Assembly: GCA_044345405.1 (NCBI GenBank)
Contig: JBIJBE010000084.1
Location: 1-29,397, forward strand
Direction of reading: 5' to 3'
Length of the DNA: 29,397 bases
Source: Bdellovibrionota bacterium
GTDB lineage: Bacteria > Bdellovibrionota_C > UBA2361 > OMII01
Part shown: positions 1 through 26,119 of the stretch, piece by piece
How the letters are laid out: each line of letters opens with the position of its first letter
Numbering within the stretch: position 1 is the first letter of the stretch
Position numbers and translations under genes: made by a program
Notes under the pieces: model-generated
The model's input: only the letters and a program-made list of their open reading frames with translations
Databases searched by the model: none
What the model was told of the DNA's origin: nothing

Positions 1-3000
1 ACCACCACACCAACTGTCACTCAAACGGCGACAACCACTCCGACCACGACACCGACCGCAACGCCAACCACGACGCCAACGACTACCCCGACCGTAACCC
101 AAACGGCGACGACCACGCCAACCAGAACGCCGACTGCTACGCCAACCAATACGCCAACGACCACACCGACCGTAACTCAAACGGCAACAACCACGCCGAC
201 GAGAACGCCGACTGCAACGCCGACCAACACGCCGACCACGACACCTACTGTAACTCAAACTGCAACAACTACGCCGACGACAACGCCGACTGCAACGCCG
301 ACCAACACGCCGACGACGACACCTACTGTAACTCAAACTGCAACAACCACTCCGACTAGAACACCGACAGCAACGCCAACAAATACTCCAACAACCACAC
401 CGACCGTAACTCAAACCGCAACAACTACGCCGACGAGAACGCCGACTGCAACGCCGACGAATACACCAACCACCACACCGACTGTAACTCAAACGGCGAC
501 GACCACTCCGACCACGACACCGACCGCAACGCCAACCACGACGCCAACGACTACCCCGACCGTAACTCAAACGGCAACAACTACACCGACTACTACGCCG
601 ACAGCTACGCCAACCAATACGCCAACGACCACGCCGACCGTAACTCAAACAGCAACAACTACGCCGACGAGAACGCCGACTGCTACGCCGACGAATACAC
701 CAACCACCACACCGACTGTAACCCAAACGGCGACGACCACTCCGACCACGACACCGACGGCAACGCCAACCACGACGCCAACGACCACACCGACCGTAAC
801 TCAAACGGCAACAACTACACCGACTACTACGCCGACAGCTACGCCAACCAATACGCCAACGACCACGCCGACCGTAACTCAAACGGCAACAACTACGCCG
901 ACGAGAACGCCAACTGCAACGCCGACGAATACACCAACCACCACACCAACTGTCACTCAAACGGCGACGACCACTCCGACCACGACACCGACCGCAACGC
1001 CAACCACGACGCCAACGACTACCCCGACTGTAACCCAAACGGCGACAACCACTCCGACGAGAACACCGACAGCAACGCCAACAAATACTCCAACAACCAC
1101 ACCGACCGTAACTCAAACCGCAACAACTACGCCGACCAGAACGCCAACTGCAACGCCGACGAATACACCAACCACTACACCGACTGTCACTCAAACGGCG
1201 ACAACTACACCGACTACGACACCGACCGCAACGCCAACCACGACGCCAACGACCACACCGACCGTAACTCAAACGGCTACGCCAACTAATACCCCAAGCA
1301 CCACCCCGACCGTAACTCAAACCGCAACAACGACGCCGACCAGAACGCCAACTGCAACGCCGACGAATACACCAACCACTACACCGACTGTCACTCAAAC
1401 GGCGACAACTACACCGACTAGAACGCCAACTGCAACGCCAACTAATACACCAACCACGACACCGACCGTAACTCAAACCGCAACGGCTACATCCACGATG
1501 ACGCCTACGGCGACGGCTACTACGACGCCGACCTCCACCCCGACGATGACGCAGACACCGACTACGACTGCAACCGCGACAGCAACCTCCACGGCGACAA
1601 CGACCCAAACCATCACCCCAACGGTTACGCTCACCCCAACGACAACGCCAACGCGAACCGCAACGCAGACAGCGACCAACACAGCAACCACCACACCGAC
1701 CGTAACTCAAACCGCAACGGCTACATCCACGATGACGCCTACGGCGACGGCTACTACGACGCCGACCTCCACCCCAACGATGACGCAGACACCGACTACG
1801 ACCGCAACCGCGACAGCGACTTCCACCGCCACCACAACACAAACCATCACCCCAACGGTTACGCTCACTCCAACGACAACGCCAACGAGAACCGCCACGG
1901 TAACCGCCACTAACACGCCAACCACCACACCGACCGTGACTCAAACGGCGACGGCTACAGCAACGATGACGCCGACCGCGACGGCTACTACGACGCCGAC
2001 CTCCACCCCAACGATGACGCAGACACCGACTACGACCGCAACCGCGACAGCCACCTCTACCGCCACCACAACACAAACCATCACCCCAACGGTCACGCAT
2101 ACTTCAACGACAACGCCAACGAGAACCGCTACGGTAACCGCCACTAACACGGCAACCACCACACCGACCGTGACTCAAACGGCGACGGCTACAGCGACGA
2201 TGACGCCGACGGCCACGGCTACTACGACGCCGACCACTACCGCGACAACGACACAGACCCCAACCTTGACGGCAACCTCCACAGCGACGGCAACCGCTAC
2301 AACGACCCAAACTATCACGCCAACGGTTACGCTCACTCCAACGACAACTCCAACGAGAACCGCCACGGTGACGGCGACCAACACGCCAACTACCACACCG
2401 ACCGTAACTCAAACCGCAACGGCGACAGCAACGATGACGCCGACCGCGACGGCTACTACGACGCCGACCTCCACCCCGACGATGACGCAGACACCGACTA
2501 CGACCGCAACCGCGACAGCTACCTCTACCGCGACAACGACCCAAACCATCACCCCAACGGTTACGCTCACGCCGACGACGACGCCAACGAGAACCGCTAC
2601 GCAGACAGCGACGAACACGGCAACCACCACACCGACCGTAACTCAAACCGCATCAACCACGCCGACGACAACGCCGACAGCGACCGCAACTAACACGCCA
2701 ACAACCACATCGACGGTAACTCAAACCGCAACACGCACGCCGACGACAACGCCGACCGCAACGGCAACCAACACCCCAACGAGCACCGCGACCGTAACTC
2801 AAACCGCAACGGCTACGGCCACGATGACGCCGACAGCAACGGCTACTATGACGCCGACCACGACCGCGACGACGACCCACACTCCAACTTCAACGGCAAC
2901 CTCAACAGCGACAGCGACCGCCACAACAACACAAACCATTACGCCAACGGTTACGCTCACTCCAACGACAACGCCAACGAGAACCGCCACGGTGACGGCA

Positions 3001-6000
3001 ACCACGACGCCAACCACCACTGCTACGACCACGCAGACCGCGACCACGACAGCGACCGCCACAGCTACGACCACACCAACATCCACCCCAACGATGACGC
3101 AGACTCCTACGGTAACGCCAACGAGAACCGCTACGGTAACCGTGACTAACACGCCGACCGTAACTCAAACCGCAACGGGTACAGCGACGACGACGCCGAC
3201 GGCAACAGCTACGATGACGCCGACCTCCACCCCAACGATGACCCAGACTGCGACAACGACCGCAACTGCGACAACGACCCAAACGGTCACGCCAACGGTT
3301 ACGCTCACTCCAACCACGACCCCAACGAGAACCGCTACGGTAACCGCGACCAACACGGCAACTACCACGCCGACCGTGACCCAAACCGCAACAGCTACGG
3401 CGACGATGACGCCGACCGCGACGGCTACTATGACGCCAACCTCTACCCCAACGATGACGCAGACTGCGACTACGACCGCAACCGCGACCGCCACCTCTAC
3501 CGCGACAACGACACAAACCGTTACTCCAACGGTCACGCTCACTCCAACGACAACGCCAACGAGAACCGCCACGGTGACGGCAACAACTACGCCAACCACC
3601 ACTGCAACGACCACGCAGACAGCGACCACGACAGCGACCGCCACAGCTACGACCACACCAACATCCACCCCAACGATGACGCAGACTCCGACCGTAACGC
3701 CAACGAGAACCGCCACGCTAACCGCGACCAACACGGCAACCACCACACCGACCGTAACTCAAACCGCAACGGCTTCAGCCACGATGACACCGACGGCGAC
3801 CGCTACTACGACGCCAACTACGACGGCGACCCCTACAAACACACAGACCATCACCCCAACGGTTACGCTCACTCCAACGACCACCCCAACGAGAACCGCT
3901 TCCGTGACGGCCACTAACACGCCAACCTCCACTGCAACGATGACGCAGACCTCGACCACAACCGCCACCGCCACCGCTACGACCACACCAACAACAACCC
4001 CAACGGTGACCCAGACTCCAACGACAACTCCAACGAGAACCGCCACAGTGACGGCGACTAACACGGCCACCACGACGCCGACCGTCACTCAAACAGCGAC
4101 TACCACGTCGACGATGACGCCGACCGCGACGGCTTCTATGACGCCAACTACTACCGCGACGACGACACAAACCCCAACCTCGACGGCAACCTCAACAGCA
4201 ACCGCGACCGCGACAACGACACAAACCATTACTCCAACGGTTACGCTCACTCCAACGACGACCCCAACAAGAACCGCTACGGTAACCGCGACCAACACGG
4301 CAACCACCACACCGACCGTGACTCAAACCGCGACGGCGACAGCGACGATGACGCCAACCGCAACGGCTACTACGACGCCGACCACTACGCCGACGACGAC
4401 ACAGACCGCAACCTTGACGGCAACCTTCACAGCGACGTCAACGGCCACAACGACCCAAACCATCACTCCAACGGTTACGCTTACTCCAACGACAACGCCA
4501 ACAAGAACCGCTACGCAGACAGCGACCAACACGGCAACCACCACACCGACCGTAACTCAAACCGCGACGACTACAGCCACGATGACGCCGACGGCGACGG
4601 CCACTACGACGCCAACCACGACCCCAACGATGACGCAGACCCCGACTACGACCGCAACCGCGACAGTGACCCCAAGCATCACCCCAACGGTTACCCTCAC
4701 TCCAACGACAACACCGACTAGAACCGCCACGGTAACCGCGACCAACACGGCAACCACCACGCCGACCGTGACTCAAACCGCAACGGTCACAGCGACGATG
4801 ACGCCGACCGCGACGGCTACTACGACGCCGACCTCCACCGCAACCACAACTCAAACACCGACTACGACCGCAACCGCGACAGCCACCTCTACCGCCACCA
4901 CAACACAAACCATCACCCCAACGGTCACGCTGACTCCAACGACAACGCCAACGAGAACCGCTACGGAGACAGCGACCAACACGGCAACCACCACGCCGAC
5001 CGTAACTCAGACGGCGACGGCAACGGCGACGATGACGCCGACCGCGACGGCTACTACGACGCCGACGACTACCGCGACGACGACGCAGACCCCAACCTTG
5101 ACGGCAACTTCCACGGCGACGGCAACCGCCACAATGACCCCGACCAGCACGCCAACGGTTACGCTCACTCCAACGACAACGCCAACGAGAACCGCTACGC
5201 AGACAGCGACCAATACGGCAACCACCACACCGACCGTAACTCAAACCGCGACCGCGACAGCGACGATGACTCCGACCGCGACGGCTACCATGACGCCGAC
5301 CACTACCGCAACGACGACACAGACCCCAACCTTGACGGCAACCTCCACAGCGACGTCAACCGCGACAACGACCCCAACCATCACGCCTACGGTTACGCTC
5401 ACTCCAACGACGACGCCAACGAGAACCGCTACGCAGACAGCGACCAACACAGCAACCACCACGCCGACCGTAACTCAAACGGCGACGGCTACAGCGACGA
5501 TGACGCCGACCGCGACGACTACTACGACGCCAACCACCACTGCGACGACGACACAGACTCCAACCTCGACGGCAACCTCAACAGCGACCGCGACCGCGAC
5601 AACGACTCAAACCATCACCCCAACGGTTACGCTCACCGCAACGACAACGCCAACGAGCACCGCTACGCAGACAGCCACCAACACGGCAACGGCCACGCCG
5701 ACCGTAACCCAAACTTCAACGACCACGTCGACGATGACGCCGACGCCGACCTTCACCACAACCACAACTCAAACACCGACTACGACCGCAACCGCCACGG
5801 CGACCTCTACGGCGACAACGACCCCAACCAATACACCGACGGTGACGCTCACCCCGACCCCGACGGCGACAGCGACGGCCACAGCTACCGCCACGGTCAC
5901 CGCGACGGCGACTCCAACCGTTACGAGCACGGCGACCGCTACGGTGACTCCTTCAGTTACCCCAACGGTCACCAATACCCCAACGGCAACGGGAACAACC

Positions 6001-9000
6001 ACAGCAACAGCGACGTCAACCAACACGCCGACTACGACGCCGACGGTCACCTTCACGCCGACCATGACCGCGACCGTTACAAGCACGACCACGGCAACCA
6101 CGACACCAACGGTAACGTCGACCGTCACTCAAACTCCGACGGCTACAGCGACCGTCACGAGGACATCGACACCGACGACTACCCCGACAGCGTCACCAAC
6201 CGTAACCGAAACTCCTACCACCACACCAACCGTCACAAGCACGGCGACTCCGACAACGAGTCCGACGATAACGGCCACCGTAACCCAAACTCCAACCCGA
6301 ACGGCGACGGTAACCAGCACAGCGACGGCGAGCGCTACTCCGACAGTAACTCCGACCGTCACACTGACCGTGACTCAGACGGCGACTCAAACCGCCACCA
6401 GCACCAGCACGTCGACCGCGACGATGACACCGACGATGACGTCCACGTCGACCGCGACCGTGACGAATACTCCAACTACGACCGCGACCCATACCAGCAC
6501 CGCGACCGCCACGATGACACCGACCGTGACCTCGACCGTCACCGAAACCGCAACGTCATCGCCAACGGTGACAAGCACCGCAACCGCCACCACAACGCCG
6601 ACTTCGACGGCAACCGTGACCACTACCCCAACAGCCACGGCGACGGTGACAAGCACGGCGACCGGAACGAGAACACCCACGGTCACCGCCACGGTTACCA
6701 CCACCCCGACAACCACCGCGACCGTAACCAACACGGCGACCTCGACGACGACCGCGACCGTGACTCCGAGCGTCACCCCAACCGTTACGCGAACACCGAC
6801 GATGACGGCCACCGAGACCGGCACCGCGACCGCCACCACTACCCCAACAGAAACGCCTACCGTGACACCAACGGCAACAGTAACTCCGACCCAAACCAGT
6901 ACTGCGACACCGACCGAGACGTCGACGGTAACACCGACCCTCACCCAAACACCGACAAGGACCGCTACGGTAACAAGCACGGCCACCGCCACGAGCACAC
7001 CAACGACAACGGCCACCGTGACTCAAACGGCAACCATGACCGGTACCACCACCAGCACGATCACAGCTACCGCTACTCCAACTATGACCGCGACGGTGAC
7101 CGATACTTCGACGGCAACGCCAACCGTCACGAACACGGTAACGGCTACGACCACACCAACCCATACGCCGACCGTCACAAACACCACCACCATGACTCCA
7201 ACGGAGACAAGTACCGCGACGCCAACGCATACGCCGACCGTCACACCGACCGTTACGCAAACGTCGACGATGACCGCTACGCGGACGCCAACCCTGACGC
7301 CGACCCTTACCGCCACCGCGACGGCTACCAACACGGCTACGAGCACAGCAACGATCACTGCGACAAGCACCGCAACAGCGACGGCGACTCAGACCGCGAC
7401 GCGCACTCCGACGGTCACATCCACCGCAACGGCCACACCAACTACGACACCAACCACGACATCGACAAGTACGCCAACAAACACTCCGACGATAACGTCG
7501 ACTCCTACGGAGACGGCGACCTCGACGCCGACTGCGATGCCGACAGAAACCGCCACGCACACGCCGACGATGACGGCGACCGCTTCTCGAACCGCTACCG
7601 CTACCGCGACACCGACCACGACGCCTACCTCAACCCCATCGGCGACGAGCACCGCTACGGTAACGCCGACAGCGACGGCTACGGCGACTGGCACGACGAC
7701 AGCGACTACAACCGCGAGTGTCACGGCGACGGCCACGTCGACGAGTACGGCGACGCACACGCCAACGACCTCGCCGACCGCGACCGATACCGCGACTACG
7801 ACACCGACCGAGACGGCTACGAGTACGGCGACAATGACAGCGACGTCGACGTCGACCTCAACCGCCACGCCGACTCGAACCCCAACGAGCACCCCAACTG
7901 AATCGCCAACTGTCACGCCGACGGTGACCACCACGGCGACCCTTACTCCAACCGTATCGGCGACTGCGACCTCAACCTCCACGCCTACAAGCACGCCGAC
8001 GCAGACGGCCACCATGACGGCCAGTCAAACCGCTACAGAGACCGCAACGGTTACCCCAACATCTACCGCCACGAACACGCCGACCCTGACCGCGACGGCG
8101 ACAACAACGCCAACCCAGACCGCGACCATGACGGCTACCGCCAGCGCTACCTCAACTGACACACCGACCGTCAGCCCTACTGTGACTATTACTCAGACAG
8201 CGACGGCGACCTCGACCGAGACTCCGACTCGCACTCCTTCGGCAACGGCGACAACCACACCTACTGTGACGGCAACTACTACGAATACCGCGACGCCAAC
8301 GACGACCGCAACGGTGACGACAACGCCAACGGTTACGTCGACTGTCACAAGCACGGCGACCTCTACCGCTACTCCAACGGTTACCGCGACTCAAACGGCA
8401 ACCAGTACGAGTACCTCTACCGCGACTGTGACCGCTACCACTACGAATACGCCATCAGTTACGCCAACCTCGACCGAAACCGCGACCGCGACCGCGACAA
8501 TTACTCGTACCCCAACTCAGTCGGCGACACCAACAGCGACGGATACACCGACACTAACGGCGACCGTAACAGTCACCGCGACTGCGACTGCAACTGAAAC
8601 CTCGACGTTAACACCAACTCAAACAGCAACCTCGACGGTAACGGCCACCGTAACACCGACCGTTACGTCAACATCGACGGTAACATCAACCGCCACAATC
8701 ACTCCGACTCTGACCTCAACGGCAACGCCGACCTCCACAGGAACGGCTACGAGCACTCACACGCCAACGGTGACAGCGACCGCTACCTCGACCGCGACGG
8801 AAACCGCAACGTCCACAAGCACGCCAACGATCACCTCTACCACAACAACCACACCTACAACGACGCCGACCGCGACAAGTACGAACACTCCAACGGTGAC
8901 AGCTACCCCAACAGAGAGTCCGACGCTGACCGCGACCCTAACCGCGACGCCGACGATGACGGAAACGAGCACGAGCACGCCAACGATGACCGTGACTCAC

Positions 9001-10590
9001 ACGGCGACAACCACCGCTACAAGCACTAGCTCCGCTACCGTGACTCCAACGCTCACGGCCACCCCGACATTTACGTCGACATCGACCGTCACGAGAACGC
9101 CGACCACTACGACAACGAGCACGGCGACCGCGACCCCGACGCCAACAATGACAGCAACGGTCACGGAGACTCCGACAACATCCGCCACTCCAACGCCGAA
9201 CGCTACCCTCACGGCAACAGCCACAGCGACTAGCACGGCGACGTATACCGCGACCGCGACTGCGACCAGCACCGCCACCCTGACGTCAACATCGACCGCG
9301 ACGGTGACATCAACCGCGACGAGCTCACCGACTGAGACCCCAACGGTGACTCCGACACAAACGCAGACTGCGACCGCTACCTCGACGATCACACCGACGA
9401 TGACATCAACCGCGACCACGACACCAACGTTGACTTCAACCAGCACGCGAACGCCGACTCCGACAGCCACGGCGACCTCCACCGCGAGCTCGACACCGAC
9501 TGCTGGGCCTACGAACACAGCGACGGTGACGCCGACTGTGACGGCGACAGCGACGGTTACCGCGACGCCGACAGAGACCTCTACGCCGACCGTGACTCCA
9601 CCGGTAAGCATCGTGAACTACCAGGTGCGCATCGCCGAGACGCCGATCTCCGGAATTCCGGTGATGGTGAACGCTGAGTCGCAAGTTACGGATGATAACG
9701 GCTCTATCGCGGTGTCGATGGACGCTGGTAAGTACTACGCGATCTCCTCAGGACTCTCGGCTGTAACCTTCGACTCGCTCTATGATAGTGGCGCGAACTT
9801 CATCAGTCGCGGAGATAAGGTAATTGAGGCCACTCGACTGGTGTCGGTGGGTGGGCCAGCATGTCGAATCTTGGTTGGCTCGGTGCCGAGCATCTACTTC
9901 ACGACGGTCAACCAGACTGACATGACGCACACCGTCTCCCGGATCTACAAGGCGAACCGCATGTACTCAGTAACCGGTGGCGCTACTCCTCCTGACTACT
10001 TCGCGCCGGGAACGAGTGGGTTCGCGGTGCCAGAGGTCGAGTTCACTCAGAACGGAGCGTTGACCGGCGTATGGAGCTTCCTGGGCCAAAGCGTCAACGT
10101 CTCAAGTGACCTCAATATGTGCGCCGACACCGGCGCTCCGGCTCAATGCTCGGTCGTTACGAAAGCAGAGCTGCGTGCTCCTGTCGACTACGCTCGAGCT
10201 GTCGTTATTCGGTTCACGAAGTTGGCGACCTCACTGGCTAAGAAGGGGCTATTGAAGAAATCGCAAGGTAGCTACGCGGCGACGTTGTTGGGACGCGGGG
10301 CCTCGATTCTCGCCGCGATGCAGAAGGCGTTGGCGCCGGCCATGACCGGAACAGCATATGTCTGCGATGCGCAACCAGCATCCTCGTGTAAGGCGCTCTC
10401 GCTGAAGTCCTTCAAGACCACAGCTCAACGAAACTTCGCTCGTCTGTTCGCCAAGCCGATACCAAGGGGCTTTGAATCGATAGCCAAGGCCGGACCTCAA
10501 GAGGGGCGACTATTTAAGTCGAACTCCCTTGATAAGCTTCCGGATGAGGTCTGGATCTGTCCAGCCGGCGTCACCCCAGCGGCTCAGTAG
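1..10590 (+). CDS. Giant Thr-rich (Thr-Xaa)n repeat surface protein A, 5'-partial; about 3200-aa stalk plus about 330-aa Cys-containing C-terminal region
   Basis: Frame 1 is open from base 1 (ACC ACC ACA CCA ACT GTC ACT CAA = TTTPTVTQ) through the supplied 1498..10590 ORF. The ATG at 1498 is an internal repeat Met. Non-repetitive C-terminus starts at about 9601 ([15 protein letters not shown]...[14 protein letters not shown]). Paralogous to 11746..19509. Confidence 0.9.
16..1467 (+). repeat. 78-bp (26-aa) tandem coding repeat, unit about [10 protein letters not shown][T/R]TPTATPT[N/T]TPTTTPT
   Basis: GTN-ACN-CAA (VTQ) recurs at 16, 94, 172, 250, 328, 406 ... 1264. One 48-bp short unit follows (1264-1311), then 1312, 1390, 1468. 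Confidence 0.9.
1468..5720 (+). repeat. 234-bp (78-aa = 3 x 26-aa) higher-order tandem coding repeat with interruptions
   Basis: Units start at 1468, 1702, 1936, 2170, 2404, then rearranged units, then 4084, 4318, 4552 (shortened), 4768, 5002, 5236, 5470. The antisense 73-aa ORFs recur with the same 234-bp spacing. Confidence 0.9.
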
Positions 10591-10673
10591 CTCCAGAGCA
10601 AAAGCTATTCGAGAAATCCTCGCTTTTAAACAGGGGGGGCGTTTGAAGAATCGGCTTCCGGCACACTCGATGG

Positions 10674-10765
10674 ATGTCACGCAATCTCTGTTCAAGTAGG
10701 TCGCCTATCCTGTGCTCATGAGCCATGGCGACGTCGTTATGTGTGGCGCGCATCCTCGTTGAGTT
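10674..10765 (+). pseudogene. Degenerate 5' fragment of the OprB-family porin gene (duplication remnant)
   Basis: Reads MSRNLCSSRSPILCS*AMATSL versus the intact MSRFLRSSCSLIVCALAMATPL at 19555, with a TTA>TGA stop. The upstream spacer (AAACAGGGGGG(G)CGTT.GAAG...CACACT) is also homologous to 19510-19554. Confidence 0.75.
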
Positions 10766-11745
10766 CACCGACATTATGCTCGCTTCCGAAGAAGTATTCA
10801 GTGCTGGATGCTGAGACCGCGGAGTCGAAACTCGCGTGAGCACCGTTGGGGAGCGCCACGGGGCTTGTGATGCAGCACGGGCGCTCACACCTCGGTGTTG
10901 AGATGGGTGAACGGCTGTAGTGGGCTGGTCGCTGGCCCGCTCTCTTCGAATATCTCCTCATCACGCCAGCATCGGCCCGTCGTAAGAGAACCCCCTGTGT
11001 GCACCGCCCCTCGCTTGAGGGTGAGATTATGTTTGTATTGGAACCCCTTCGGCTCATGCTCCAAGAGCCAGTTCCAATTTTTACGTCCTTATGCAGGTTT
11101 TGCGTAGTTCCCGATTCCATGTTTGAACGTCCGCGACCTCACTGGGTTCAAACGGGCACAACGAGTGCGCCAAGACGCAATGCGCAATAATTACAGCCAC
11201 CTGCTGAAGCCGCCGCACGTGGATTGGGACCTCGAGAGAGAGCAGCCGCTGTGCGGAAACTCCCTAGCGGGCCTCCAGATGGGGGTCACAAAGCCCCAGT
11301 GACGCACTGTTCTGTCGACCAAGGACTAGGGAGTTAGCCCGCTCAACGATGCCCGCTAAGTACCCGATTTGGCGTCTTACCACGTGGGTCTTTGGGGGGC
11401 CGAAAAGCTTAGGTTTTGACCGTTAAAAGCTCAATGATTTCAGAAAGTAGGTCGACCTAGATTGTGCGGCCCTAAGCTCCAGCGAACGCCGCGGACCCCT
11501 CACACCGAAAGCGGACGGTGTGCTCTCAGTCGTAGCAACGGAAAGCAGGGTTTTTTTTCCCCGCGTTTCTCGCAGGCAACTCGAGAAGGTTTTTGTCGGA
11601 GAATTTTTTGGCTCACTCCCTTATTACACGCGAGGGTGAACGCGACAGCAGAGCGGCTGCGTGGCTTCGAGCCATAAGAATTTTCTTTTCACTGAGCGCA
11701 CCTAACACCCTAAGTGCTTCAGATGATGCCCCCACCAAAAATGAA

Positions 11746-14700
11746 ATGCGCGTTCTTCGAGTAACGCTGCTGCTGTTGACCCTCTTGGTGTGCTTCGTAC
11801 CGAGGGTGTCGATGGCGTACCAATGCTGTCTCGTGCTCGATGAGAATGATAATCAGTGTTGGGGTGGTTCAGATTCCAACTCCGGAGGACCGTGCGATCC
11901 GCAGGATGGTACGCCTCAATGCGCGACGAACTGTTGGGGTGGGGGAGGCAGCGCCACCGCCACGCACACGAACACTCCCGCTGGCACTGCTACATCCACT
12001 CCAGCTGTTACCGCCACAGCGACATCGGCGAGCACCAATACAACTACTCCGACGACTGTTCCCACCGCGACCACACCAACGGCGGCAACAGCTACCGCCA
12101 CACAGGTAGCGACCGCGACTGCACCATCGACCGCAACTGCGACTGCACTCTCGACCGCGACCTCGACAGCACTATCGACCGCGACTGCCACGCCTCTGAT
12201 ACCCACCGCTACGCCGACGACGCTCGTTACCGCGACAGCAACTCTTTTGACAGCAACAGCAACGTCGACACGGACACATACACATACTCCAACCGTAACA
12301 GCCACGCCAACCGCTACGTGGAATTGTGGGACTTCAAGTGGGGACCTCTCCATCTTCGTCGCCAGTGTCACTGATGATGGGTTGTGGGGCGGCGGCTCTG
12401 GACTTGAGTCGATGCGGCAGACGTGCCAATCGCTCGCCGACGCGCGGGGATATACGGGAAGTTGGTATCCTCTTGTCTCTGACTCCACTTGGAACGCTCG
12501 TAACGTGACGGGCACCAGTGGAGCAGGCGCCATCTGGAACATGAACAGCCAAATCGTGTTCGCGGACCGGGCGACGATGTGGAGCGGCACCGCGCCGTCA
12601 TATTCGCTCGCTTACAAAGAGGATCGAACCTCATCCGGCTCGACGCAGGTATTCACCTCAACAACGTCGACTGGATATGTTACCTCTTCAACCTACACCT
12701 GCAGTGATTGGAAGAGCACATCCGGTAATACGTACTTAGGAGATCCTACCCTCAGCAAGGGTTGGATCGATGGGACGTATTCTCCCTACAATACGGCGGC
12801 GTGTACCGAGACAAAGTCGATCTACTGTATCGGTAACTACGTTCCTCCGACATTCACGCCCACCCCTACCAACACGCCACTTGTCACCAACACAGCGACG
12901 GCGCTCGCGACGAGCACGATAACCTTAACACCAACTTTAACCGCGACCGCGAGTCCTACGAGGACACCGACAGCTACGAGCACATTGACCGCGACGACGA
13001 CTGCGACCTCATCACCGATAGCAACCGCGACAGCGACCGCTCTCGCGACAGCAACGGCAACGCCATCGATTACTCCAACTCCGGCTGCACTCTGTATCAC
13101 TGACATGGAGTGGAATAGCCAGATGGATAGTTGTCCTGGAAGTGGTGGATACCATGCAGCAGGCCGTTGGTTCCCGTATATCACTTGGACCGGTGGGTCT
13201 CTCTATGCAACGGTCGGAGTGTACACAGACTCAAGTTGTACCACCCCAGCGACCAAGAATGGTGGTGGGAACGCGGTTGCTACTGACAACTCGACCGATG
13301 ACTACGACGCCACGCCGCGAATCTTTGAGTCCCTACACGATGATCTCTCCTGTCCGACGAGCGATGCGGCAGCGAGTTACATCGGAATCTCTGACGGCAC
13401 CCAGAGCATATGCGTCGCGTTCAATCTCGGCGTTGTCTCTCCTCCTATTTGTTTTGGAGCTCCCACCTCAACACCCACCGCAACTCCGACGACTACCCCG
13501 ACATCGACCCTCACGCAGACGTCGACGCCGACAAGCACCGTGACAGTAACGGCGACAGTAAGTCAAACGCCGACACCAACGGCAACGGTGACGGCTACTT
13601 CAACTCCAACCAGAACACCAACGGTTACGCCGACCGTAACTCAAACAGCCACGACAACATCAACATTAACTGCGACAGCGACGGCGACAGGGACTCCAAC
13701 GGTTACCCCGACGGTGACGCAGACATCAACGGCTACCTCTACCGCTACCAGCACCTCGACCGCTACCACCACCCCGACCGTAACCCCAACGGTCACACAG
13801 ACGCGAACGATGACGCCGACCGCGACCAGCACATCGACCGCCACGGCAACACCAACCGTAACGCCAACGGCGACTGCAACGACGACGTCGACCACCACAC
13901 CGACGGTAACGCAAACCGCAACGACTACACCGACGATGACGCCAACGGCGACCGCCACCACGACGCCGACCACCACCCCAACGGTCACGCAGACAGCAAC
14001 AACAACGCCGACGAGAACAGCGACTGCTACAGCGACCACTACGCCGACTACCACACCGACGGTAACGCAAACCGCGACGACAACGCCGACGATGACGCCA
14101 ACAGCGACCGCCACGACGACGCCGACCACCACACCGACCGTAACTCAAACCGCAACGGCGACAGCGACCACGACGCCAACCGCGACGGCTACTATGACGC
14201 CGACCACCACCGCGACGACGACACAGACCCCAACCTTGACGGCAACCTCCACCGCGACGGCAACCGCGACAACGACCCCAACTGTCACGCCAACGGTTAC
14301 GCACACTCCAACGACGACTCCAACGACAACCGCTACGCAGACAGCGACCAATACAGCAACCACCACACCGACCGTAACTCAAACGGCGACGGCTACAGCA
14401 ACGATGACGCCAACCGCGACGGCTACTACGACGCCGACCTCCACCCCGACGATGACGCAGACACCGACTACGACCGCAACCGCGACAGCTACCTCTACCC
14501 CGACAACGACCCCAACCATCACGCCAACGGTCACGCATACTCCAACGACGACGCCAACGAGAACCGCTACGCAGACAGCGACCAACACGGCAACTACCAC
14601 GCCGACCGTGACTCAAACGGCGACGGCGACAGCGACGATGACGCCGACCGCGACGGCTACTACGACGCCGACGACTACCGCGACGACGACACAGACCCCA

Positions 14701-17700
14701 ACCTTGACGGCAACCTCCACAGCGACGGCAACCGCGACAACGACCCCAACTGTCACGCCAACGGTTACGCACACTCCAACGACGACTCCAACGAGAACAG
14801 CTACGCAGACAGCGACCAACACAGCAACGACAACACCGACGTTAACTCAAACCGCGACGGCTTCAGCGACGATGACACCGACGGCGACGGCTACTACGAC
14901 GCCGACCACTACCGCGACGACGACACAGACCCCAACCTTGACGGCAACCTCCACAGCGACGGCAACAGCGACAACGACCCCAACTGTCACGCCAACGGTT
15001 ACGCACACTCCAACGACGACGCCAACGAGAACCGCTACGCAGACAGCGACCAACACAGCAACCACCACACCGACCGTAACTCAAACGGCGACGGCTACAG
15101 CAACGATGACGCCGACCGCGACGGCTACTACGACGCCGACCACTACGGCGACAACGACACAGACCCCAACCTTGACGGCAACCTCCACAGCGACGGCAAC
15201 CGCGACAACGACCCCAACTGTCACGCCAACGGTTACGCACACTCCAACGACGACTCCAACGAGAACAGCTACGCAGACAGCGACCAACACGGCAACGACA
15301 ACACCGACCGTAACTCACACGGCGACGGCTACGGCGACGATGACGCCGACCTCTAGCCAAACGATGACGCAGACTCCGACGACGACGGCAACCGCGACAG
15401 CTACCTCTACCGCCACAACCACCGCAACTGCTACGGTTACCCCTTCGGTCACACCAACGGTCACCAATACCCCATCGGCAACGGGAACAGCTACGGCAAC
15501 GGCCACATCAGCCAACACTCCCACGACCACGCCGACGGTCACCTTCACGCCCACCATGACCGCGACCGTTACGTCCACGAACACGGCAACGACGACACCA
15601 ACGACAACGTCGACCGTCACTAACACCGCTACACCAACTACTACCCCAACGGTGACACCGTCAGTAACTGAAACTCCGACCGCCACACCGACCGTCACCA
15701 ACACGGTGACTCCAACAACGAGTCCAACGATAACGGCTACCGTGACGCAAACTCCAACCCATACAGCGACCCTAACTAGCACCGCGACGGCCAGCGCGAC
15801 TCCAACGGTAACGCCGACCGTCACGCTCACCGTAACTCAGACCGCGACTCAAACCGCGACCAGCACCGGCACGACTTCCGCCACGCATACGAGCACCGCG
15901 ACCGCTACGACGACACCGACCGTGACCTCGACCGTTACCGAAACCGCAACGGCAACACCAACGGTGACAAGCACCGCAACCGACACTACAACACCGACCT
16001 CGACGGCAACGGTGACCACTACCCCAACAGCCACTGTGACGGTGACGAGAACCGAGACCCCAACGACGACACCGACGGTGACCGCGACGGTCACTACCAC
16101 CCCGACAACCCCTGCGACCGTAACCAACACCGCGACCACTACGCCAACAGAGACGGCCACCGTGACACCGACGGCAACATCAACTCCGACGCGAACCAGC
16201 ACCGCGACACCGACCGAGACGTCGACGGTAACACCGACCCTTACTCAAACACCGACAATGACCGCTACCGTAACAAGCACGGCCACCGCCACGAGCACAC
16301 CAACGACAACGACCACCGTGACTCAAACGGCAACCATGACCGGTACCACCACCAGTACGGCCACAGCTACCGCCACTCCAACCATGACCGCGACGATGAC
16401 CCAGAGCTCCACGGCAACACCAACCGTCACGAATACGGTAACGGCTACGACCACACCAACCCATACGCCGACCGTCACAAACACGATCACCATGACCCCA
16501 ACGGAGACAAGTACCGCGACACCAACGCATACGCCGACCGCTTCTCGAACCACAACCGCTACCGCGACGCCGAGCACGACCCCTACCTCAACCGCATCGG
16601 CAACGAACACCGCTACGGTAACGCCTACAGCGACGGCTACGGCGACTGGCACGACGACGGCGACTATAACCGCGAGTGTCACGGCGACCGCCACATCGAC
16701 GAGTACGGCGACGCTCACGCCAACGACCTCGCCGACCGTCACTACTACCGCGACTACGACCGCGACCGAGACGGCTACGAGTACGGCAACAATGACAGCG
16801 ACGTCGACGTCGACCTCAACCGCCACGCCGACTCGAACCCCAACCAGCACCCCAACTGAATCGCCAACTATTACAACGACGGTGACCGTCACCGCGACGA
16901 TCACACCAACCGTATCGCCGACCTCGACGTTCACGCCGACTCATACGCCGACGCAGACCGCCACCATGACAGCAAGTCAGACCGCTACAGAGACCGCAAC
17001 GGTTACCCCGACATCTACCGCGACGGACACAGCGACCCTTACCGCGACGGTGACCTCAACGCCGACCCAGAACCCCACCATTACCGCGACCGCGAGCGCT
17101 ACCTCAACTGACACACCGACCGTCAGCCCTACTGTCACTCTTACTCAGACAGCAACGGCGACCCCGACCGAGACTCCGACTCGCACTCCTTCGGCAACGG
17201 CGACAACCACACCTACTGTGACGGCGACTACTACGAACACCGCGACGCCAACGATGACCGCGACTGTGACGACAACGCCAACGGTTACGTCGACCGTGAC
17301 AAGCACGGCAACCTCTACCGCCACTCCAACGGTTACCGCGACTCAAACGGCGACCAGTACGAGCACCTCTACCGCGACTGTCACCGCTACCACCACTAAT
17401 ACGCCATCGGTCACTGCAACCTCGACCGAAACCGCCACCCCCACGGTGACAAGTACCAATACACCAACTCGGTCACCAACCCCGACACCGACGGATACAT
17501 CGACGCGAACGGCGACCGCGACCGCTACTGAAACGTCGACGGTAACACCAACTCAAACAGCAACGTCGACGGTAACGACTACCGTGACACCGACAGTGAC
17601 ATCAACCTCGACACTCACTCCGACCCTGACCTCAACGTCAACGGCGACCTCCACAGGAACGGCCACGAGCACTCAAACGCCAACGGTGACGGCGACCGCT

Positions 17701-19509
17701 ACCTCGACCTCGACCGAAACCCCAACGTCCACAAGTGCGCCAACTATCACCTCTACCACAACTACTACACCTACAACGACGCCGACCGCGACAAGTACGA
17801 ACACTCCAACGGTGACAGCTACCTCAACAGAGAGCCCAACGGTAACCGCGACCCTAACCGCGACGCCGACGACGACGGGCACGAGTACGAGCACGCCAAC
17901 AATGACCGTGACGGAGACGGCGACCACCACCGCCACCAGCACAAGTTCCGCCACTGTGACCCCAACGCTCACCGCCACGGAAACATCCACGTCAACCTCA
18001 ACCGTGACCGTTACGCCGACCACTACGACAACGAGCACGGCGACCACCACCTGGACGCCAACGGTAACACCATCGGTGACGGAGACTCCAACGACAACAG
18101 CGACACCAACGCCGAGTGCCACGCTCACGGCAACGGCGACACCTACGAGTTCAGCGACTCAAACCGCGAGCGCGACGGCAACGAGCACCGCTACCCTCAC
18201 ATCGACGTCGACCGCAACTGTGACATCTACGGCGACGAGTTCACCGACGGAAACCCCAACGTCGAGCCCGACAAACACGCCGACACCAACCGCCACCTCG
18301 ACCACCACACCAACGATGACATTAACCGCGACCACGACGCCGACGGTTACCCCAACCAGCACCCGAACGTCGACCCCGACCGCCAGCTCGACTCCAACCC
18401 CTGGACCTACGAACACAGCGACGGTCACGCCGACTGTGACGCCAACGGCGACGATTACGGCGACGCCGACAGAGAGCGCCACGCCGACCGTGACTCCACC
18501 GGTAAGCATCGTGAACTACCAGGTGCGCATCGCCGAGACGCCGATCGCCGGAATTCCGGTGATGGTGAACGCTGAGTCTCAAGTCACGGACGATAACGGT
18601 TCTATCGCTGTGTCGATGGACGCTGGTAGTTACTACGCTATCTCGTCGGGTCTCTCGGCGGTAACCTTCGAATCGCTCTACGACAGTGGAGCGAGCTTCA
18701 TCAGTCGCGGAGATAAGGTCATCGATGCTACTCGGCTTGTGTCGGTGGGCGGACCAGCATGTCGAATCCTGGTTGGCTCGGTGCCGAGTATCTACTTCAC
18801 GACGGTAAACCAGACCGATATGACCCACACCGTCTCCCTCGACTACAAGGTAAACCGCATGTACTCGGTAACTGGCGGCGCTACTCCTCCAGACTACTTC
18901 GCGCCGGGCACGAGCGGGTTCGCGGTGCCAGAGGTTGAGTTCACTCAGGACGGAACGTTGACCGGTGTATGGAGCTTCCTGGGTCAACGTGTCAGCGTAT
19001 CAAGTGATCTCAATATGTGCGCCGATACCGGCGTTCCGGTCCAATGCTCGATCGTTACGAAGACAGCGCTGCGCGCTCCTATCGACTACGCTCGGGCTGT
19101 CGTTATTCGGTTCACGAAGTTGGCGACCTCACTGGCTAAGAAGGGGCTATTGAAGAAATCGCAAGGTAGCTCCGCGATAACGTTCTACGGACGCGGGGCC
19201 TCGATTCTCGCCGCCATGCAGCAGGCGTTGGCGCCGGCCATGAACGGCACGGCCTATGTCTGCGATGCGCAACCAGTATCCTCGTGTAAGGTGCTCTCGC
19301 TGAAGTCCTTCAAGGTCACAGCTCAACGAAACTTCTCTCGTCTGTTCGCCAAGCCGATACCAAAGGGCTTTGAATCCATGGTTGCGGCCGGGCCTCAAGA
19401 GGGGCGAATGTTCAAGTCGAAATTCCTCGATAAGCTTCCAGGTGAGGTCTGGATCTGTCCAGACGGCGTCAACCCTTCGACCCCGCAGTTGAGGCAACCC
19501 TCGTTCTAA
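11746..19509 (+). CDS. Giant secreted Thr-rich repeat protein B: signal peptide, Cys-rich head, DUF1554/endostatin-like domain, second Cys domain, about 1680-aa Thr-Xaa stalk, conserved C-terminal region
   Basis: The supplied ORF starts at TTG 11593. The in-frame ATG at 11746 gives a Sec-type signal peptide, MRVLRVTLLLLTLLVCFVPRVSMA|YQCC, although no clear SD precedes it. The C-terminal region 18499..19509 is about 88% aa-identical to A (about 38 differences counted by eye). Confidence 0.88.
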   Translation: MRVLRVTLLLLTLLVCFVPRVSMAYQCCLVLDENDNQCWGGSDSNSGGPCDPQDGTPQCATNCWGGGGSATATHTNTPAGTATSTPAVTATATSASTNTTTPTTVPTATTPTAATATATQVATATAPSTATATALSTATSTALSTATATPLIPTATPTTLVTATATLLTATATSTRTHTHTPTVTATPTATWNCGTSSGDLSIFVASVTDDGLWGGGSGLESMRQTCQSLADARGYTGSWYPLVSDSTWNARNVTGTSGAGAIWNMNSQIVFADRATMWSGTAPSYSLAYKEDRTSSGSTQVFTSTTSTGYVTSSTYTCSDWKSTSGNTYLGDPTLSKGWIDGTYSPYNTAACTETKSIYCIGNYVPPTFTPTPTNTPLVTNTATALATSTITLTPTLTATASPTRTPTATSTLTATTTATSSPIATATATALATATATPSITPTPAALCITDMEWNSQMDSCPGSGGYHAAGRWFPYITWTGGSLYATVGVYTDSSCTTPATKNGGGNAVATDNSTDDYDATPRIFESLHDDLSCPTSDAAASYIGISDGTQSICVAFNLGVVSPPICFGAPTSTPTATPTTTPTSTLTQTSTPTSTVTVTATVSQTPTPTATVTATSTPTRTPTVTPTVTQTATTTSTLTATATATGTPTVTPTVTQTSTATSTATSTSTATTTPTVTPTVTQTRTMTPTATSTSTATATPTVTPTATATTTSTTTPTVTQTATTTPTMTPTATATTTPTTTPTVTQTATTTPTRTATATATTTPTTTPTVTQTATTTPTMTPTATATTTPTTTPTVTQTATATATTTPTATATMTPTTTATTTQTPTLTATSTATATATTTPTVTPTVTHTPTTTPTTTATQTATNTATTTPTVTQTATATATMTPTATATTTPTSTPTMTQTPTTTATATATSTPTTTPTITPTVTHTPTTTPTRTATQTATNTATTTPTVTQTATATATMTPTATATTTPTTTATTTQTPTLTATSTATATATTTPTVTPTVTHTPTTTPTRTATQTATNTATTTPTLTQTATASATMTPTATATTTPTTTATTTQTPTLTATSTATATATTTPTVTPTVTHTPTTTPTRTATQTATNTATTTPTVTQTATATATMTPTATATTTPTTTATTTQTPTLTATSTATATATTTPTVTPTVTHTPTTTPTRTATQTATNTATTTPTVTHTATATATMTPTSSQTMTQTPTTTATATATSTATTTATATVTPSVTPTVTNTPSATGTATATATSANTPTTTPTVTFTPTMTATVTSTNTATTTPTTTSTVTNTATPTTTPTVTPSVTETPTATPTVTNTVTPTTSPTITATVTQTPTHTATLTSTATASATPTVTPTVTLTVTQTATQTATSTGTTSATHTSTATATTTPTVTSTVTETATATPTVTSTATDTTTPTSTATVTTTPTATVTVTRTETPTTTPTVTATVTTTPTTPATVTNTATTTPTETATVTPTATSTPTRTSTATPTETSTVTPTLTQTPTMTATVTSTATATSTPTTTTTVTQTATMTGTTTSTATATATPTMTATMTQSSTATPTVTNTVTATTTPTHTPTVTNTITMTPTETSTATPTHTPTASRTTTATATPSTTPTSTASATNTATVTPTATATATGTTTATITASVTATATSTSTATLTPTTSPTVTTTATTTATETATSTATMTATSTSTSTATPTRTPTSTPTESPTITTTVTVTATITPTVSPTSTFTPTHTPTQTATMTASQTATETATVTPTSTATDTATLTATVTSTPTQNPTITATASATSTDTPTVSPTVTLTQTATATPTETPTRTPSATATTTPTVTATTTNTATPTMTATVTTTPTVTSTVTSTATSTATPTVTATQTATSTSTSTATVTATTTNTPSVTATSTETATPTVTSTNTPTRSPTPTPTDTSTRTATATATETSTVTPTQTATSTVTTTVTPTVTSTSTLTPTLTSTSTATSTGTATSTQTPTVTATATSTSTETPTSTSAPTITSTTTTTPTTTPTATSTNTPTVTATSTESPTVTATLTATPTTTGTSTSTPTMTVTETATTTATSTSSATVTPTLTATETSTSTSTVTVTPTTTTTSTATTTWTPTVTPSVTETPTTTATPTPSATLTATATPTSSATQTASATATSTATLTSTSTATVTSTATSSPTETPTSSPTNTPTPTATSTTTPTMTLTATTTPTVTPTSTRTSTPTASSTPTPGPTNTATVTPTVTPTATITATPTESATPTVTPPVSIVNYQVRIAETPIAGIPVMVNAESQVTDDNGSIAVSMDAGSYYAISSGLSAVTFESLYDSGASFISRGDKVIDATRLVSVGGPACRILVGSVPSIYFTTVNQTDMTHTVSLDYKVNRMYSVTGGATPPDYFAPGTSGFAVPEVEFTQDGTLTGVWSFLGQRVSVSSDLNMCADTGVPVQCSIVTKTALRAPIDYARAVVIRFTKLATSLAKKGLLKKSQGSSAITFYGRGASILAAMQQALAPAMNGTAYVCDAQPVSSCKVLSLKSFKVTAQRNFSRLFAKPIPKGFESMVAAGPQEGRMFKSKFLDKLPGEVWICPDGVNPSTPQLRQPSF
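12346..12834 (+). other. Endostatin-like / DUF1554-type domain within protein B
   Basis: The pattern IFV...GLWGG..G......CQ..A......G.W..LVSD ... CSDW.S ... W ... C....SIYCI matches my recollection of DUF1554 (Leptospira Len-like) domains. Not confirmed by HMM. Confidence 0.7.
13906..15345 (+). repeat. Three 78-bp units followed by five 234-bp units in protein B
   Basis: VTQ at 13906, 13984, 14062. The 234-bp units start at 14140, 14374, 14608, 14842, 15076, with a partial unit at 15310. Confidence 0.88.
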
Positions 19510-24513: not shown

Positions 24514-25737
24514 CTACACCGCCTTCGCCAACGGATTTACCGCTCGCTCTCGTGGCGTTCCGAAATACTTCGAACAAAGAAGATCCGCCGCGTGCTCAGC
24601 GCCCTCTTTAAGGTCGCCGATAACGGGACGTTGTCGCTCTTGAAGCTCCTTGCGCGCGTTCCACGCCTCGGTCAATTTTTGCGCGAGGTACTGCGGTGTA
24701 AGTGACGCGAGCTCAAGGCTGAACTCCTCGCACTGGAGGAGCTTCAAATATCCACGAACCTTCGGTGCGTAGATAAGTCCCACCACCGGAGTCTCAACCG
24801 ATGACGCGAGGACGATCGAATGGAATCGCATTCCCACAAGGATACCGCACTTGCGAATCACAGCTTGAATATCGTGGCTCAAGTACGTTGAGTTAGTAAG
24901 GACTTTTGCGCCGCACATCTCAGCGAGCTCGCGGCAGGTCGCCTCATCCATCGGGTGAGTGCACACAATCAATGGCTGGAATGAATCAGTAACCTGCTTC
25001 TGAGCCTGTTGTACCCCTTCCGCGATAGTCTTCAGGAGCCCCTTTGGATCCGAGAGTCGCTCATTCGGATTGAGCCAGGTATCGAGGTAGGCGGTCGCGT
25101 TGATCGCCATCGTTGGCTTCTCTGGATCGAGTCCGAGTTCGCGCATGATCGAGACCGCGACCTTGTCATCCGAGACAGGATTAATGAACGCTGCGTCACC
25201 GGTGAGTTCTACCGGCTTCGTTACACCGATATCCTTGGTGAGCTTCTCGCTATCGCGCTCACGCATCATCACAAGGTCGCACCCTTGGATCGTCCACTTC
25301 GCGAAGAGGCGACTGATGGCGTTCTGGAACGGGCCGATGCCGGTTGAGTAGCACACCATCTTGCATCCCAAGAGTCGCGCGAGCGGAACGAGGAACACGA
25401 GGGTGATAAGGTAGTTGAACGCTGGGTTAAAGAGCTTCTTGCCGAAGATGATTCCGTCGCAAATAAGCGCGACGTCGCTCTTGGCGAGACAGATGAGGGT
25501 AGGGAGGCCAAGAAGCCGAAGGCTCAGGGTCCACGGCATTACGTTCACGGCCTTCACGTTGTATCGATCGCCGTAGTGCTTGCGAACCCACTCAGGCTTG
25601 ATGGTCGGCACGTAGAACTCAGCGTTCGGCATCCGCTTGGAGAGACTCTCCATAATGCTCGACATAATCGCCATGTCTCCAAGGTTTCGACCTGAGTTGT
25701 TGCCGAGGAGGGTGATCCGTGGGTGAGTGCCTTTCAT
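24514..25737 (-). CDS. Polysaccharide pyruvyl transferase family protein (CsaB/WcaK-like)
   Basis: N-terminal G...RNLGD.AI, GIGPF, RER.S, GDAAF, VGMRFHSIVLA and Y.PKV motifs typical of PS_pyruv_trans proteins. Confidence 0.9.
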   Translation of the reverse strand: MKGTHPRITLLGNNSGRNLGDMAIMSSIMESLSKRMPNAEFYVPTIKPEWVRKHYGDRYNVKAVNVMPWTLSLRLLGLPTLICLAKSDVALICDGIIFGKKLFNPAFNYLITLVFLVPLARLLGCKMVCYSTGIGPFQNAISRLFAKWTIQGCDLVMMRERDSEKLTKDIGVTKPVELTGDAAFINPVSDDKVAVSIMRELGLDPEKPTMAINATAYLDTWLNPNERLSDPKGLLKTIAEGVQQAQKQVTDSFQPLIVCTHPMDEATCRELAEMCGAKVLTNSTYLSHDIQAVIRKCGILVGMRFHSIVLASSVETPVVGLIYAPKVRGYLKLLQCEEFSLELASLTPQYLAQKLTEAWNARKELQERQRPVIGDLKEGAEHAADLLCSKYFGTPRERAVNPLAKAV

Positions 25738-26082: not shown

Positions 26083-26111
26083 TTGACCGTCTCTCCCCGC
26101 ACCGCTACCCT
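26083..26111 (+). promoter_or_regulatory. Putative sigma70 promoter of the btu operon
   Basis: TTGACC-17 nt-TACCCT. The predicted start site (about 26118) falls just before the first riboswitch stem. Confidence 0.6.
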
Positions 26112-26119
26112 GCTAAGCA

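Follow-up and report, generated by a model that had tools for sequence, protein, structure and literature searches.

Tandem giant genes with strict (Thr/Ser)-X stalks and a shared C-terminal domain: possible head-stalk-anchor tethers of diderm bacteria

The analysis described here of contig JBIJBE010000084.1 from a Bdellovibrionota bacterium (assembly GCA_044345405.1), a stretch of 29,397 nt that we call the window and of which about 10 kb lie 3' of gene B, reveals two neighbouring giant genes, A and B, whose products are built around a very long stalk of alternating (Thr/Ser)-X dipeptides followed by a common C-terminal domain, the tail. We propose that A and B arose by recent tandem duplication within a rare, unannotated family, and that this family consists of Sec-exported head-stalk-anchor tethers of diderm bacteria, a joint proposal that we hold with about equal weight for and against. 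It is carried by the architecture of the proteins, by the dipeptide register and the selection acting on it, by the existence of a wider family, and by a confidently predicted tail fold with a recurrent charge pattern. A previous reading made from the sequence alone had claimed two giant same-strand paralogs, and we find that this is correct (A at least 3529 amino acids (aa), B 2587 aa), together with its layout for B (a signal peptide judged by eye, a head of three modules with Cys, a stalk of 1677 aa and a conserved tail) and for A (a stalk of at least 3199 aa and the same tail, 88% identical to that of B). The parts of the two genes are listed below (ORF, open reading frame; TRF, Tandem Repeats Finder).

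1-10590, plus strand: gene A, from the ORF list; 3529 aa, 5' end open at the window edge
1-9597, plus strand: stalk of A (visible part, aa 1-3199), strict (T/S)-X dipeptide repeat by register count
1-1277, plus strand: most uniform array of A, 78-nt (26-aa) unit and 234-nt super-unit, by TRF
1450-5750, plus strand: older, diverged 234/468-nt array of A (TRF: period 234, 18.3 copies, 70% matches)
9598-10590 (coding to 10587), plus strand: tail of A (aa 3200-3529), 330 aa and stop, 88% identity to the B tail
10591-11745, no strand: A-B intergenic spacer, 1155 nt, short ORFs only, none convincing
11593-19509, plus strand: long ORF of gene B, from the ORF list
11746-11817, plus strand: Sec-type signal peptide of B, aa 1-24, by eye
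11818-11949, plus strand: head module 1 of B, aa 25-68, 44 aa with six Cys, from the sequence
11950-12309, plus strand: linker 1 of B, rich in Thr, Ala and Pro, from the sequence
12310-12849, plus strand: head module 2 of B, aa 189-368, 180 aa with four conserved Cys, possibly distantly DUF1554/endostatin-like
12850-13083, plus strand: linker 2 of B, Thr-rich, from the sequence
13084-13464, plus strand: head module 3 of B, aa 447-573, 127 aa, Cys-containing, from the sequence
13465-18495, plus strand: stalk of B, aa 574-2250, 1677 aa, strict (T/S)-X by register count
13891-15351, plus strand: 234-nt array in the B stalk (TRF: 6.2 copies, 86% matches)
18496-19509 (coding to 19506), plus strand: tail of B, aa 2251-2587, 337 aa and stop, from the tail-family alignment

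The likely start of gene B is the ATG at 11746, which gives a gene of 11746-19509 encoding 2587 aa, and both this start and the signal peptide that follows it (basic n-region, hydrophobic core some 14 residues long, small residues at -3 and -1) were judged by eye; no Shine-Dalgarno-like motif is evident by eye before this ATG. From the signal onward B runs as module, linker, module, linker, module, stalk and tail. Thr accounts for 50.7% of the residues in A and 40.1% of those in B, and the stalks for 65-90% of protein length. Within them nearly every second residue is Thr or Ser: in A the register is T/S at 1597 of 1600 positions (99.8%; 1568 Thr, 29 Ser, 3 other), and in B at 834 of 839 (801 Thr, 33 Ser, 5 other), with Ser at 2-4% of register positions in both. 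A sliding-window test found no phase change in either stalk, and all four Thr codons occur in the register. The intervening X positions are mostly Ala (26%), Pro (21-23%), Thr (10-12%), Val (9-11%), Ser (8-11%) and Gln (5-6%) across A and B, the values for A being 26%, 23%, 12%, 9%, 8% and 6%, respectively. They also tolerate Arg (57 occurrences), Glu (40) and His (20), and the 4876 stalk residues of the two proteins contain no Lys and no Cys at all, for which protease resistance or a constraint imposed by modification are possibilities.

Comparison of the two genes indicates that the register is kept at the level of the protein. The 3' 3019 nt of A and B are collinear with 86.4% nucleotide identity, and the tails share 289 of 328 residues (88%); because they differ at 14% of nucleotides, A and B are by this measure diverged paralogs and not one collapsed locus. 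Over the aligned stalk, codon differences at the Thr register are 81 synonymous and 10 non-synonymous (330 positions), and those at the X register 63 synonymous and 71 non-synonymous (329 positions); all four indels span an even number of residues (2, 6, 6 and 6). The tails differ by 51 synonymous and 41 non-synonymous codons. Such a pattern looks like purifying selection on the protein, and the mostly synonymous Thr register together with the even indels suggests that the T/S alternation is maintained in the protein and does not simply echo a DNA repeat. The same rule is found outside the window, in related genome loci (L001 to L004) that were recovered with one peptide pattern from a 7-sequence alignment, four being a lower bound, and whose database labels (Proteobacteria, Deltaproteobacteria and Gemmatimonadota metagenome-assembled genomes) are unconfirmed. 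In L003 the register is T/S at 655 of 657 positions over 1314 aa and in L001 at 266 of 270, the L004 stalk has no phase change, and the rule thus persists in relatives whose tails are just 31-64% identical.

These observations bear on whether the genes are real, since one could argue that they are artefacts or dead genes, either a misassembled repeat or low-complexity ORFs that stay open through their composition. Several facts would suit this: the end of the contig falls within the most uniform array, three of the four related loci break in the stalk, the public gene call for this contig covers only a 332-aa tail, and B lacks a Shine-Dalgarno motif. We nevertheless regard it as very improbable, as the stalks share unbroken reading frames with a signal peptide, with folded heads and with a tail that is under purifying selection, the Thr register shows 81 synonymous to 10 non-synonymous differences with every indel keeping the register, A and B differ by 14% in nucleotide sequence, and L003, an independent assembly, contains a complete ORF of 3026 aa with the same layout.

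The arrays within the stalks point to how they arose. The one at 1-1277, which holds the contig end, has a period of 234 nt in 5.5 copies with 89% matches (TRF), and its X register is self-identical at 0.97 at a lag of 78 aa and 0.90 at a lag of 26 aa. In the last, C-terminal 1000-1200 residues of each stalk period 2 is kept and tandem repetition is gone, leaving at most a weak 26-aa echo of proline (autocorrelation ≤0.22) and no regular turn positions. Judged from these periods, the stalks grew out of a 26-aa (78-nt) unit. The median spacing of Pro is 5-7 residues, and a Pfam search with two stalk pieces (that from B being 600 aa) returned no family. With Pro at this spacing, only the weak 26-aa echo besides period 2, and no Pfam domain, the stalk is unlikely to fold, and the Pro spacing also argues against a regular beta-solenoid. 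We therefore consider it highly unlikely that the stalk is a folded Thr-faced beta structure, akin to the TXT surfaces of ice-binding and ice-nucleation proteins or to amyloid, that orders water, ice or mineral. A Thr at every second residue could place hydroxyls on one face of a beta-strand, and a 26-aa unit does underlie the arrays. Against this, Pro accounts for 21-23% of X positions (49% in L003) and recurs at a median spacing of 5-7 residues, the C-terminal 1000-1200 residues lack regular turn positions, and a length that can be anything from about 55 aa to more than 3199 aa is the behaviour of a spacer. The regular coil repeat, flat TXT face and fixed turns of ice-binding or ice-nucleation beta-solenoids were not found in the stalks; what is present are the tandem repeats rich in Thr, Ser and Pro that characterise mucin-type PTS regions, here as arrays of 78, 234 and 468 nt.

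The stalks end in the tail, for which neither Pfam nor NCBIfam held a family over cut-off in A or B; the sole sub-threshold match was HVO_A0261_N (19 bits against a cut-off of 35), and a profile of 31 tail sequences found no match among Protein Data Bank (PDB) sequences at E≤1. An exhaustive HMMER search over 1.84 billion cluster representatives recovered 64 relatives at E≤1e-3, of which 41 reach E≤1e-10 and 14 reach E≤1e-30, the best non-self phmmer E-value being 1e-67. Both tails can be aligned end to end with 29 relatives and share the hallmarks of the family: a length of about 310-340 aa, an F-x-P-G-x-x-G-F stretch, six conserved Cys, and a basic helical half that ends in a near-terminal Cys. 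All 29 relatives from a word-indexed search are unnamed or called 'hypothetical protein' and have no Pfam domain. By these searches the tail is a rare, unannotated and conserved C-terminal domain family, in line with the suggestion of the sequence-only reading that the system was undescribed: no match was found in Pfam, NCBIfam or the PDB, the relatives are unnamed, and we found no paper on this type of protein. Our literature search, in which subscription journals were thinly covered, found no account of this tail or of giant Thr-X proteins in diderms, and a preprint on giant genes (10.1101/2023.11.21.568195) deals, in its accessible part, with other protein types.

The form in which these relatives are catalogued deserves comment. 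Of the 64 hits, 52 do not exceed 352 aa, in 45 no more than 10 residues precede the match, and the tail is C-terminal in 49. P0003, the catalogue entry for this contig, holds only the last 332 aa of B (18511-19509), and P0068 gives the A tail as a 325-aa entry found on 15 contigs, the longest of 52460 nt. P0009 corresponds to locus L004, where the reading frame extends upstream over 230 residues of stalk before it meets the end of the contig. The short entries are, as these frames indicate, truncated gene calls and not small proteins, and gene calls that start after the low-complexity stalk have evidently caused the family to be catalogued as hypothetical proteins of about 300 aa. Among relatives of 1422-4528 aa scored on the tail, the word-indexed search returned none, a weak negative as P0007 (1421 aa) falls just outside that range.

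An AlphaFold2 (AF2) model of the tail from the 31-row alignment is confident, with a mean predicted local distance difference test score (pLDDT) of 90.6 and a predicted template modelling score (pTM) of 0.56. In it residues 3-168 form beta strands, and residues 184-321 four long helices (within 189-311) with a small sheet. Four Cys (C89, C175, C184 and C256) are invariant in the 31 sequences and two more (C264 and C321) are at least 90% conserved, and these six Cys fit an oxidising, extracytoplasmic location; most members have a Cys 1-3 residues from the C-terminus. In the invariant columns no conserved set of catalytic-type residues was obvious. Moreover, we found that the two halves carry opposite charge, with a net of -9 for the beta part and +14 for the helical part of the B tail, the helical half being net positive in all 31 tails (median +14, pI 9.1-11.3) and the beta half net negative in 30 of 31 (median -10). 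Foldseek against the PDB gave as its best matches the DUF3823 two-sandwich proteins of Bacteroides (4yok, 4fxt and 3hn5; E 8e-5 to 1e-3), at TM-scores of 0.22-0.26 on the query and 11-13% identity and with the helical half uncovered, a generic sandwich resemblance of the beta half and not membership. Atlas matches to the tail scored at most 0.84 and were all generic CarboxypepD_reg/PEGA-like sandwiches. A relation to phage tail fibres was considered and is unsupported, Foldseek against viral models having given generic sandwiches of low TM-score (≤0.26). A separate observation concerns P0044 (370 aa), in which the helical basic half (query 176-319) follows immediately on RCC1-like repeats, stalk and beta half both being absent. 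As this protein carries that half alone, the helical half may be an independent module.

Such a domain could also be read as an export or sorting domain for some outer-membrane secretion machine, possibly cleaved in the manner of the C-terminal domains of the type IX secretion system (T9SS), and not as an anchor. The C-terminal position of the tail in 49 of 64 hits and its conservation while the heads vary would agree with this, as would the Cys 1-3 residues from the C-terminus in most members and the autonomous module suggested by the helical half alone on the RCC1-like P0044. We consider it quite improbable all the same: known sorting signals are far smaller than the tail with its roughly 320 aa, two sub-domains and three likely disulfides, none of the NCBIfam models for such signals matched, and none of the four loci has a conserved secretion neighbour.

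Turning to the N-terminal end, eight family members have a visible N-terminus, and in all eight a hydrophobic, signal-like segment is followed by a head, a T/P-rich stalk and the tail. The heads differ. L003 is a complete 3026-aa ORF with 14 FG-GAP repeats, a 1314-aa stalk and the tail, P0007 has a DUF5122/Rax2-like propeller, and the heads of P0037, P0064 and P0050 matched no Pfam family. In B, the domain of module 2 is also the head of the tail-bearing P0018 and P0021 and is present twice in P0067. When the four aligned proteins were scanned against Pfam, two matched DUF1554 (PF07588; best E 2.2e-5) and one Endostatin (E 8.7e-4), P0018 scoring 17 bits with DUF1554 against a cut-off of 27.5, and B's own copy matched neither at E≤1. 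Modules 1 and 3 had no Pfam or NCBIfam match, and module 3 gave no usable Atlas match. One weak PHROGs match (E 4e-4) covers B residues 367-526, that is, the end of module 2, linker 2 and part of module 3, and a PADLOC scan returned nothing. Stalk length, read from the sequences, varies from about 55 to at least 3199 aa across the family, and the stalk lies directly upstream of the tail in all four loci, with three of the four contigs breaking inside it. The X positions of L003 are 49% Pro. L001 shares with the window a syntenic block of tail gene, OprB, TypA and SDF, in which identity is 96.5% for TypA, 86% for SDF and 78% for OprB but only 64-67% for the tail, which suggests that the giant genes evolve much faster than their neighbours, as expected of surface proteins. 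Two tail-gene copies are present in the window and at least two in the genomes of L001 and L004.

The architecture invites comparison with known systems. The serine-rich repeat proteins (SRRPs) of Gram-positive bacteria, such as Fap1, GspB, SraP and PsrP, have a signal, a binding region, a long glycosylated stalk of alternating hydroxy-amino acid and X, and a C-terminal attachment. B has the same succession of signal, head, very long dipeptide stalk and C-terminal element. The register of A and B, however, is Thr and not Ser (Ser at only 29 of 1600 and 33 of 839 positions), their tails end in a 320-aa globular domain without LPXTG or a hydrophobic segment, B has a short Sec signal of the ordinary kind, the bacterium is a diderm, and accessory-Sec and Gtf genes are absent from the 10 kb 3' of B. 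By these differences the A/B family is not an SRRP family, but the parallel to Ser-Xaa adhesins previously drawn for this DNA, which had already pointed out the Thr and the diderm host, is apt as regards the strict dipeptide stalk. Fungal adhesins (Als, Flo and Epa) and the PTS regions of animal mucins likewise combine a binding head, a Ser/Thr/Pro-rich, tandem, O-glycosylated and length-variable stalk and a C-terminal anchor; they differ in being eukaryotic, anchored by glycosylphosphatidylinositol or a membrane segment, and without a strict period of 2, whereas the register of A is unbroken over 3199 residues. Pro-Thr linkers join the extracellular domains of secreted bacterial glycoside hydrolases such as cellulases, and the PT-repeat adhesins of Cutibacterium acnes are said to have the same kind of T/P dipeptide sequence. 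Such linkers run to tens of residues, compared with at least 3199 and 1677 in the stalks of A and B. The giant adhesins of the repeats-in-toxin (RTX) and type I secretion system (T1SS) class (LapA, SiiE and MpIBP) are diderm proteins with a distal binding region, a cell-proximal retention module, a stalk of folded Ig-like domains and RTX/T1SS signals at the C-terminus, and lack a Sec signal; the stalk pieces and tails of A and B contain no Pfam family, and B has a Sec-type signal. Autotransporters (type V and inverse) differ in that the tail model is a beta-sandwich with a helical bundle and has no autotransporter Pfam match, and the sorting domains of T9SS and PEP-CTERM in that no curated model exceeded its cut-off in either tail and no sorting-signal match occurred at E≤1.

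A precedent for glycosylating such a stalk comes from the Cnm/WapA adhesins and their Pgf glycosylation pathway. The Thr-rich region of Cnm is far shorter than the A and B stalks. The available part of one study describes Streptococcus mutans Cnm as a signal, collagen-binding domains, a Thr-rich region and LPxTG, and reports the Thr-rich region to be predicted as O-glycosylated and undigested by trypsin, Glu-C and pepsin (PMC5856776). The accessible text of another describes the Pgf pathway as a GT-A enzyme together with GT-C enzymes that act outside the cytoplasm (PMC12041528). As far as these texts go, Pgf modifies the Thr-rich region of Cnm outside the cytoplasm and after Sec export, so the absence of SecA2/SecY2 would be no obstacle to glycosylation of the stalks (PMC5856776, PMC12041528). 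The order of signal, binding domains, Thr-rich region and C-terminal attachment is the same in Cnm/WapA as in our proteins, and the ending differs, with LPxTG in Cnm (PMC5856776). The A and B tails are unrelated to it, and the window has no pgf-like GT-A or GT-C genes.

We propose that an interchangeable N-terminal head, presumably ligand-binding, would direct each protein to its target, different heads serving different targets; in B the head would consist of a Cys-knot-like module, the possibly DUF1554/endostatin-like domain and a third Cys module. The alternating (Thr/Ser)-X spacer would remain extended, most likely through dense O-glycosylation after Sec export, and its length would be tuned by repeat expansion. 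The disulfide-stabilised tail of about 320 aa would engage a conserved partner of the producing cell, its basic helical half perhaps holding the protein on an anionic component of the envelope or matrix and so placing the head far from the cell. Glycosylated mucin-type chains extend by 0.25 nm per residue, a figure taken unchecked from the earlier reading, at which B might reach as far as about 0.4 micrometre and A 0.8 micrometre or more. O-glycosylation, exposure at the surface, anchoring through the tail and passage over the outer membrane are all inferred components of such a tether. The 'filament system' put forward by the sequence-only reading overstates the case, as nothing shows polymerisation, and its picture of unlike heads displayed at unequal distances from the cell is conjectural, the head of A lying outside the window.

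Neighbouring genes in the related loci touch on the question of glycosylation. In L003 (10962-15478, minus strand) genes for a nucleotidyltransferase, a GHMP/galactokinase-like kinase, a major facilitator superfamily (MFS) transporter and a glycosyltransferase of family 61 (GT61) converge on the tail gene, and in L004 (1701-5589, minus strand) those for a GT4 and a methyltransferase do so. As candidates for glycosylation of the stalk these glycosyltransferases are suggestive at most.

A number of points weigh against the tether model. The N-terminus of A, with its signal peptide and head, lies beyond the window edge, and the general architecture draws on only 8 members with visible N-termini. 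The AF2 model of module 2 (4-row alignment) has a pLDDT of 41, and binding by the head is unsupported by structure; that the tail is an anchor is suggested by analogy and charge, and nothing beyond these. Glycosyltransferase genes stand beside the tail gene in just two of the four loci, which could be coincidence, and the window has no glycosyltransferase, GT-C enzyme or oligosaccharyltransferase, the nearest sugar-related gene being a polysaccharide pyruvyl transferase 5 kb downstream. Nor could an outer-membrane export route be identified, as we found no T9SS, PEP-CTERM or LPXTG signals, no autotransporter barrel and no RTX/T1SS feature, so that the protein could stay periplasmic or be released.

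Release is at the centre of the alternative that we consider unlikely and yet the most serious, in which the A and B products are matrix or slime glycoproteins that are not anchored to the cell but form hydrated mucin-like polymers in a biofilm or sheath, the basic half of the tail cross-linking acidic exopolysaccharide and the heads binding matrix or substrate. Stalk composition and tail charge fit this equally well, no covalent or membrane anchor is recognisable, a polysaccharide pyruvyl transferase, an enzyme of anionic glycans, is encoded nearby, and genomes carry several copies with different heads. On the other side, SRRPs and fungal adhesins of like layout are cell-bound. The available part of PMC5856776 describes the same for Cnm. 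On present data the matrix proteins and the anchored tethers are indistinguishable.

The remainder of the window supports the nature of the host. Seven genes lie 3' of B, encoding an OprB porin, TypA/BipA, an SDF symporter, the pyruvyl transferase, a TonB-dependent receptor, TonB and a periplasmic binding protein, and the porin, receptor and TonB together indicate a diderm. The features in question, and ORFs that overlap the stalks, are as follows.

24514-25737, minus strand: polysaccharide pyruvyl transferase (Pfam PS_pyruv_trans, E 8e-29)
26108-26290, plus strand: cobalamin riboswitch (75.4 bits, E 4e-17)
26384-28315: TonB-dependent receptor, downstream of the riboswitch
28320-28967: TonB protein, after the TonB-dependent receptor
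28964-29395: periplasmic binding protein, after TonB
1-2100, 4438-5244, 6556-7560 and 13726-14772, minus strand, and others: antisense or off-frame ORFs over the stalks, from the ORF list

The riboswitch, receptor, TonB and binding protein are an ordinary B12-uptake operon. The pyruvyl transferase has a sub-threshold CsaB-like NCBIfam match (109 bits against 213), and it is pure speculation that it may make an anionic glycan bound by the basic half of the tail. Over the 10 kb visible 3' of B we found no SecA2/SecY2/Asp and no GtfA/GtfB genes, so that for this part of the window the absence noted previously holds, and across the four loci no neighbouring secretion gene is conserved. OprB was considered as a partner of B and dropped, being syntenic only in L001 and absent 3' of the tail gene in L002, L003 and L004. 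The A-B spacer (10591-11745) has no Rfam match and no sigma-70-like promoter match. The antisense and off-frame ORFs, which reach 700 aa, were rejected as genes, as they are by-products of the ACN-NNN codon pattern and read as alternating Val, or Gly/Arg/Ser/Cys.

In summary, A and B follow a known design principle; what sets these diderm proteins apart is their extreme length, the unusual strictness of their dipeptide code and a tail domain not described before. Going further, and more tentatively than for the tethers themselves, it is possible that they represent an unrecognised class of micrometre-scale Thr-X glyco-tethers spread over several lineages, with its own envelope-anchoring or export domain and a dedicated pathway for periplasmic O-glycosylation and outer-membrane delivery, of which the strict placing of a hydroxyl on every second residue would be the mark, a class hidden until now by assembly breaks in the stalk and gene calls of the tail only. 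If the tether model is true, diderm environmental bacteria would own an equivalent of the serine-rich repeat adhesins and of eukaryotic mucin-type tethers that is made from other parts, namely a Thr-X stalk in perfect two-residue register over thousands of residues and a new disulfide-bonded, bipolar-charged tail. This would raise the questions of what enzyme could recognise so strict a T-X code, by what means a protein of 2600 to over 3500 residues crosses the outer membrane or becomes attached to it without a known signal, and what a cell gains from a head held 0.4-0.8 micrometre away from it. Such proteins are also systematically under-counted, because the catalogues hold almost only their 'hypothetical' fragments of about 300 aa.

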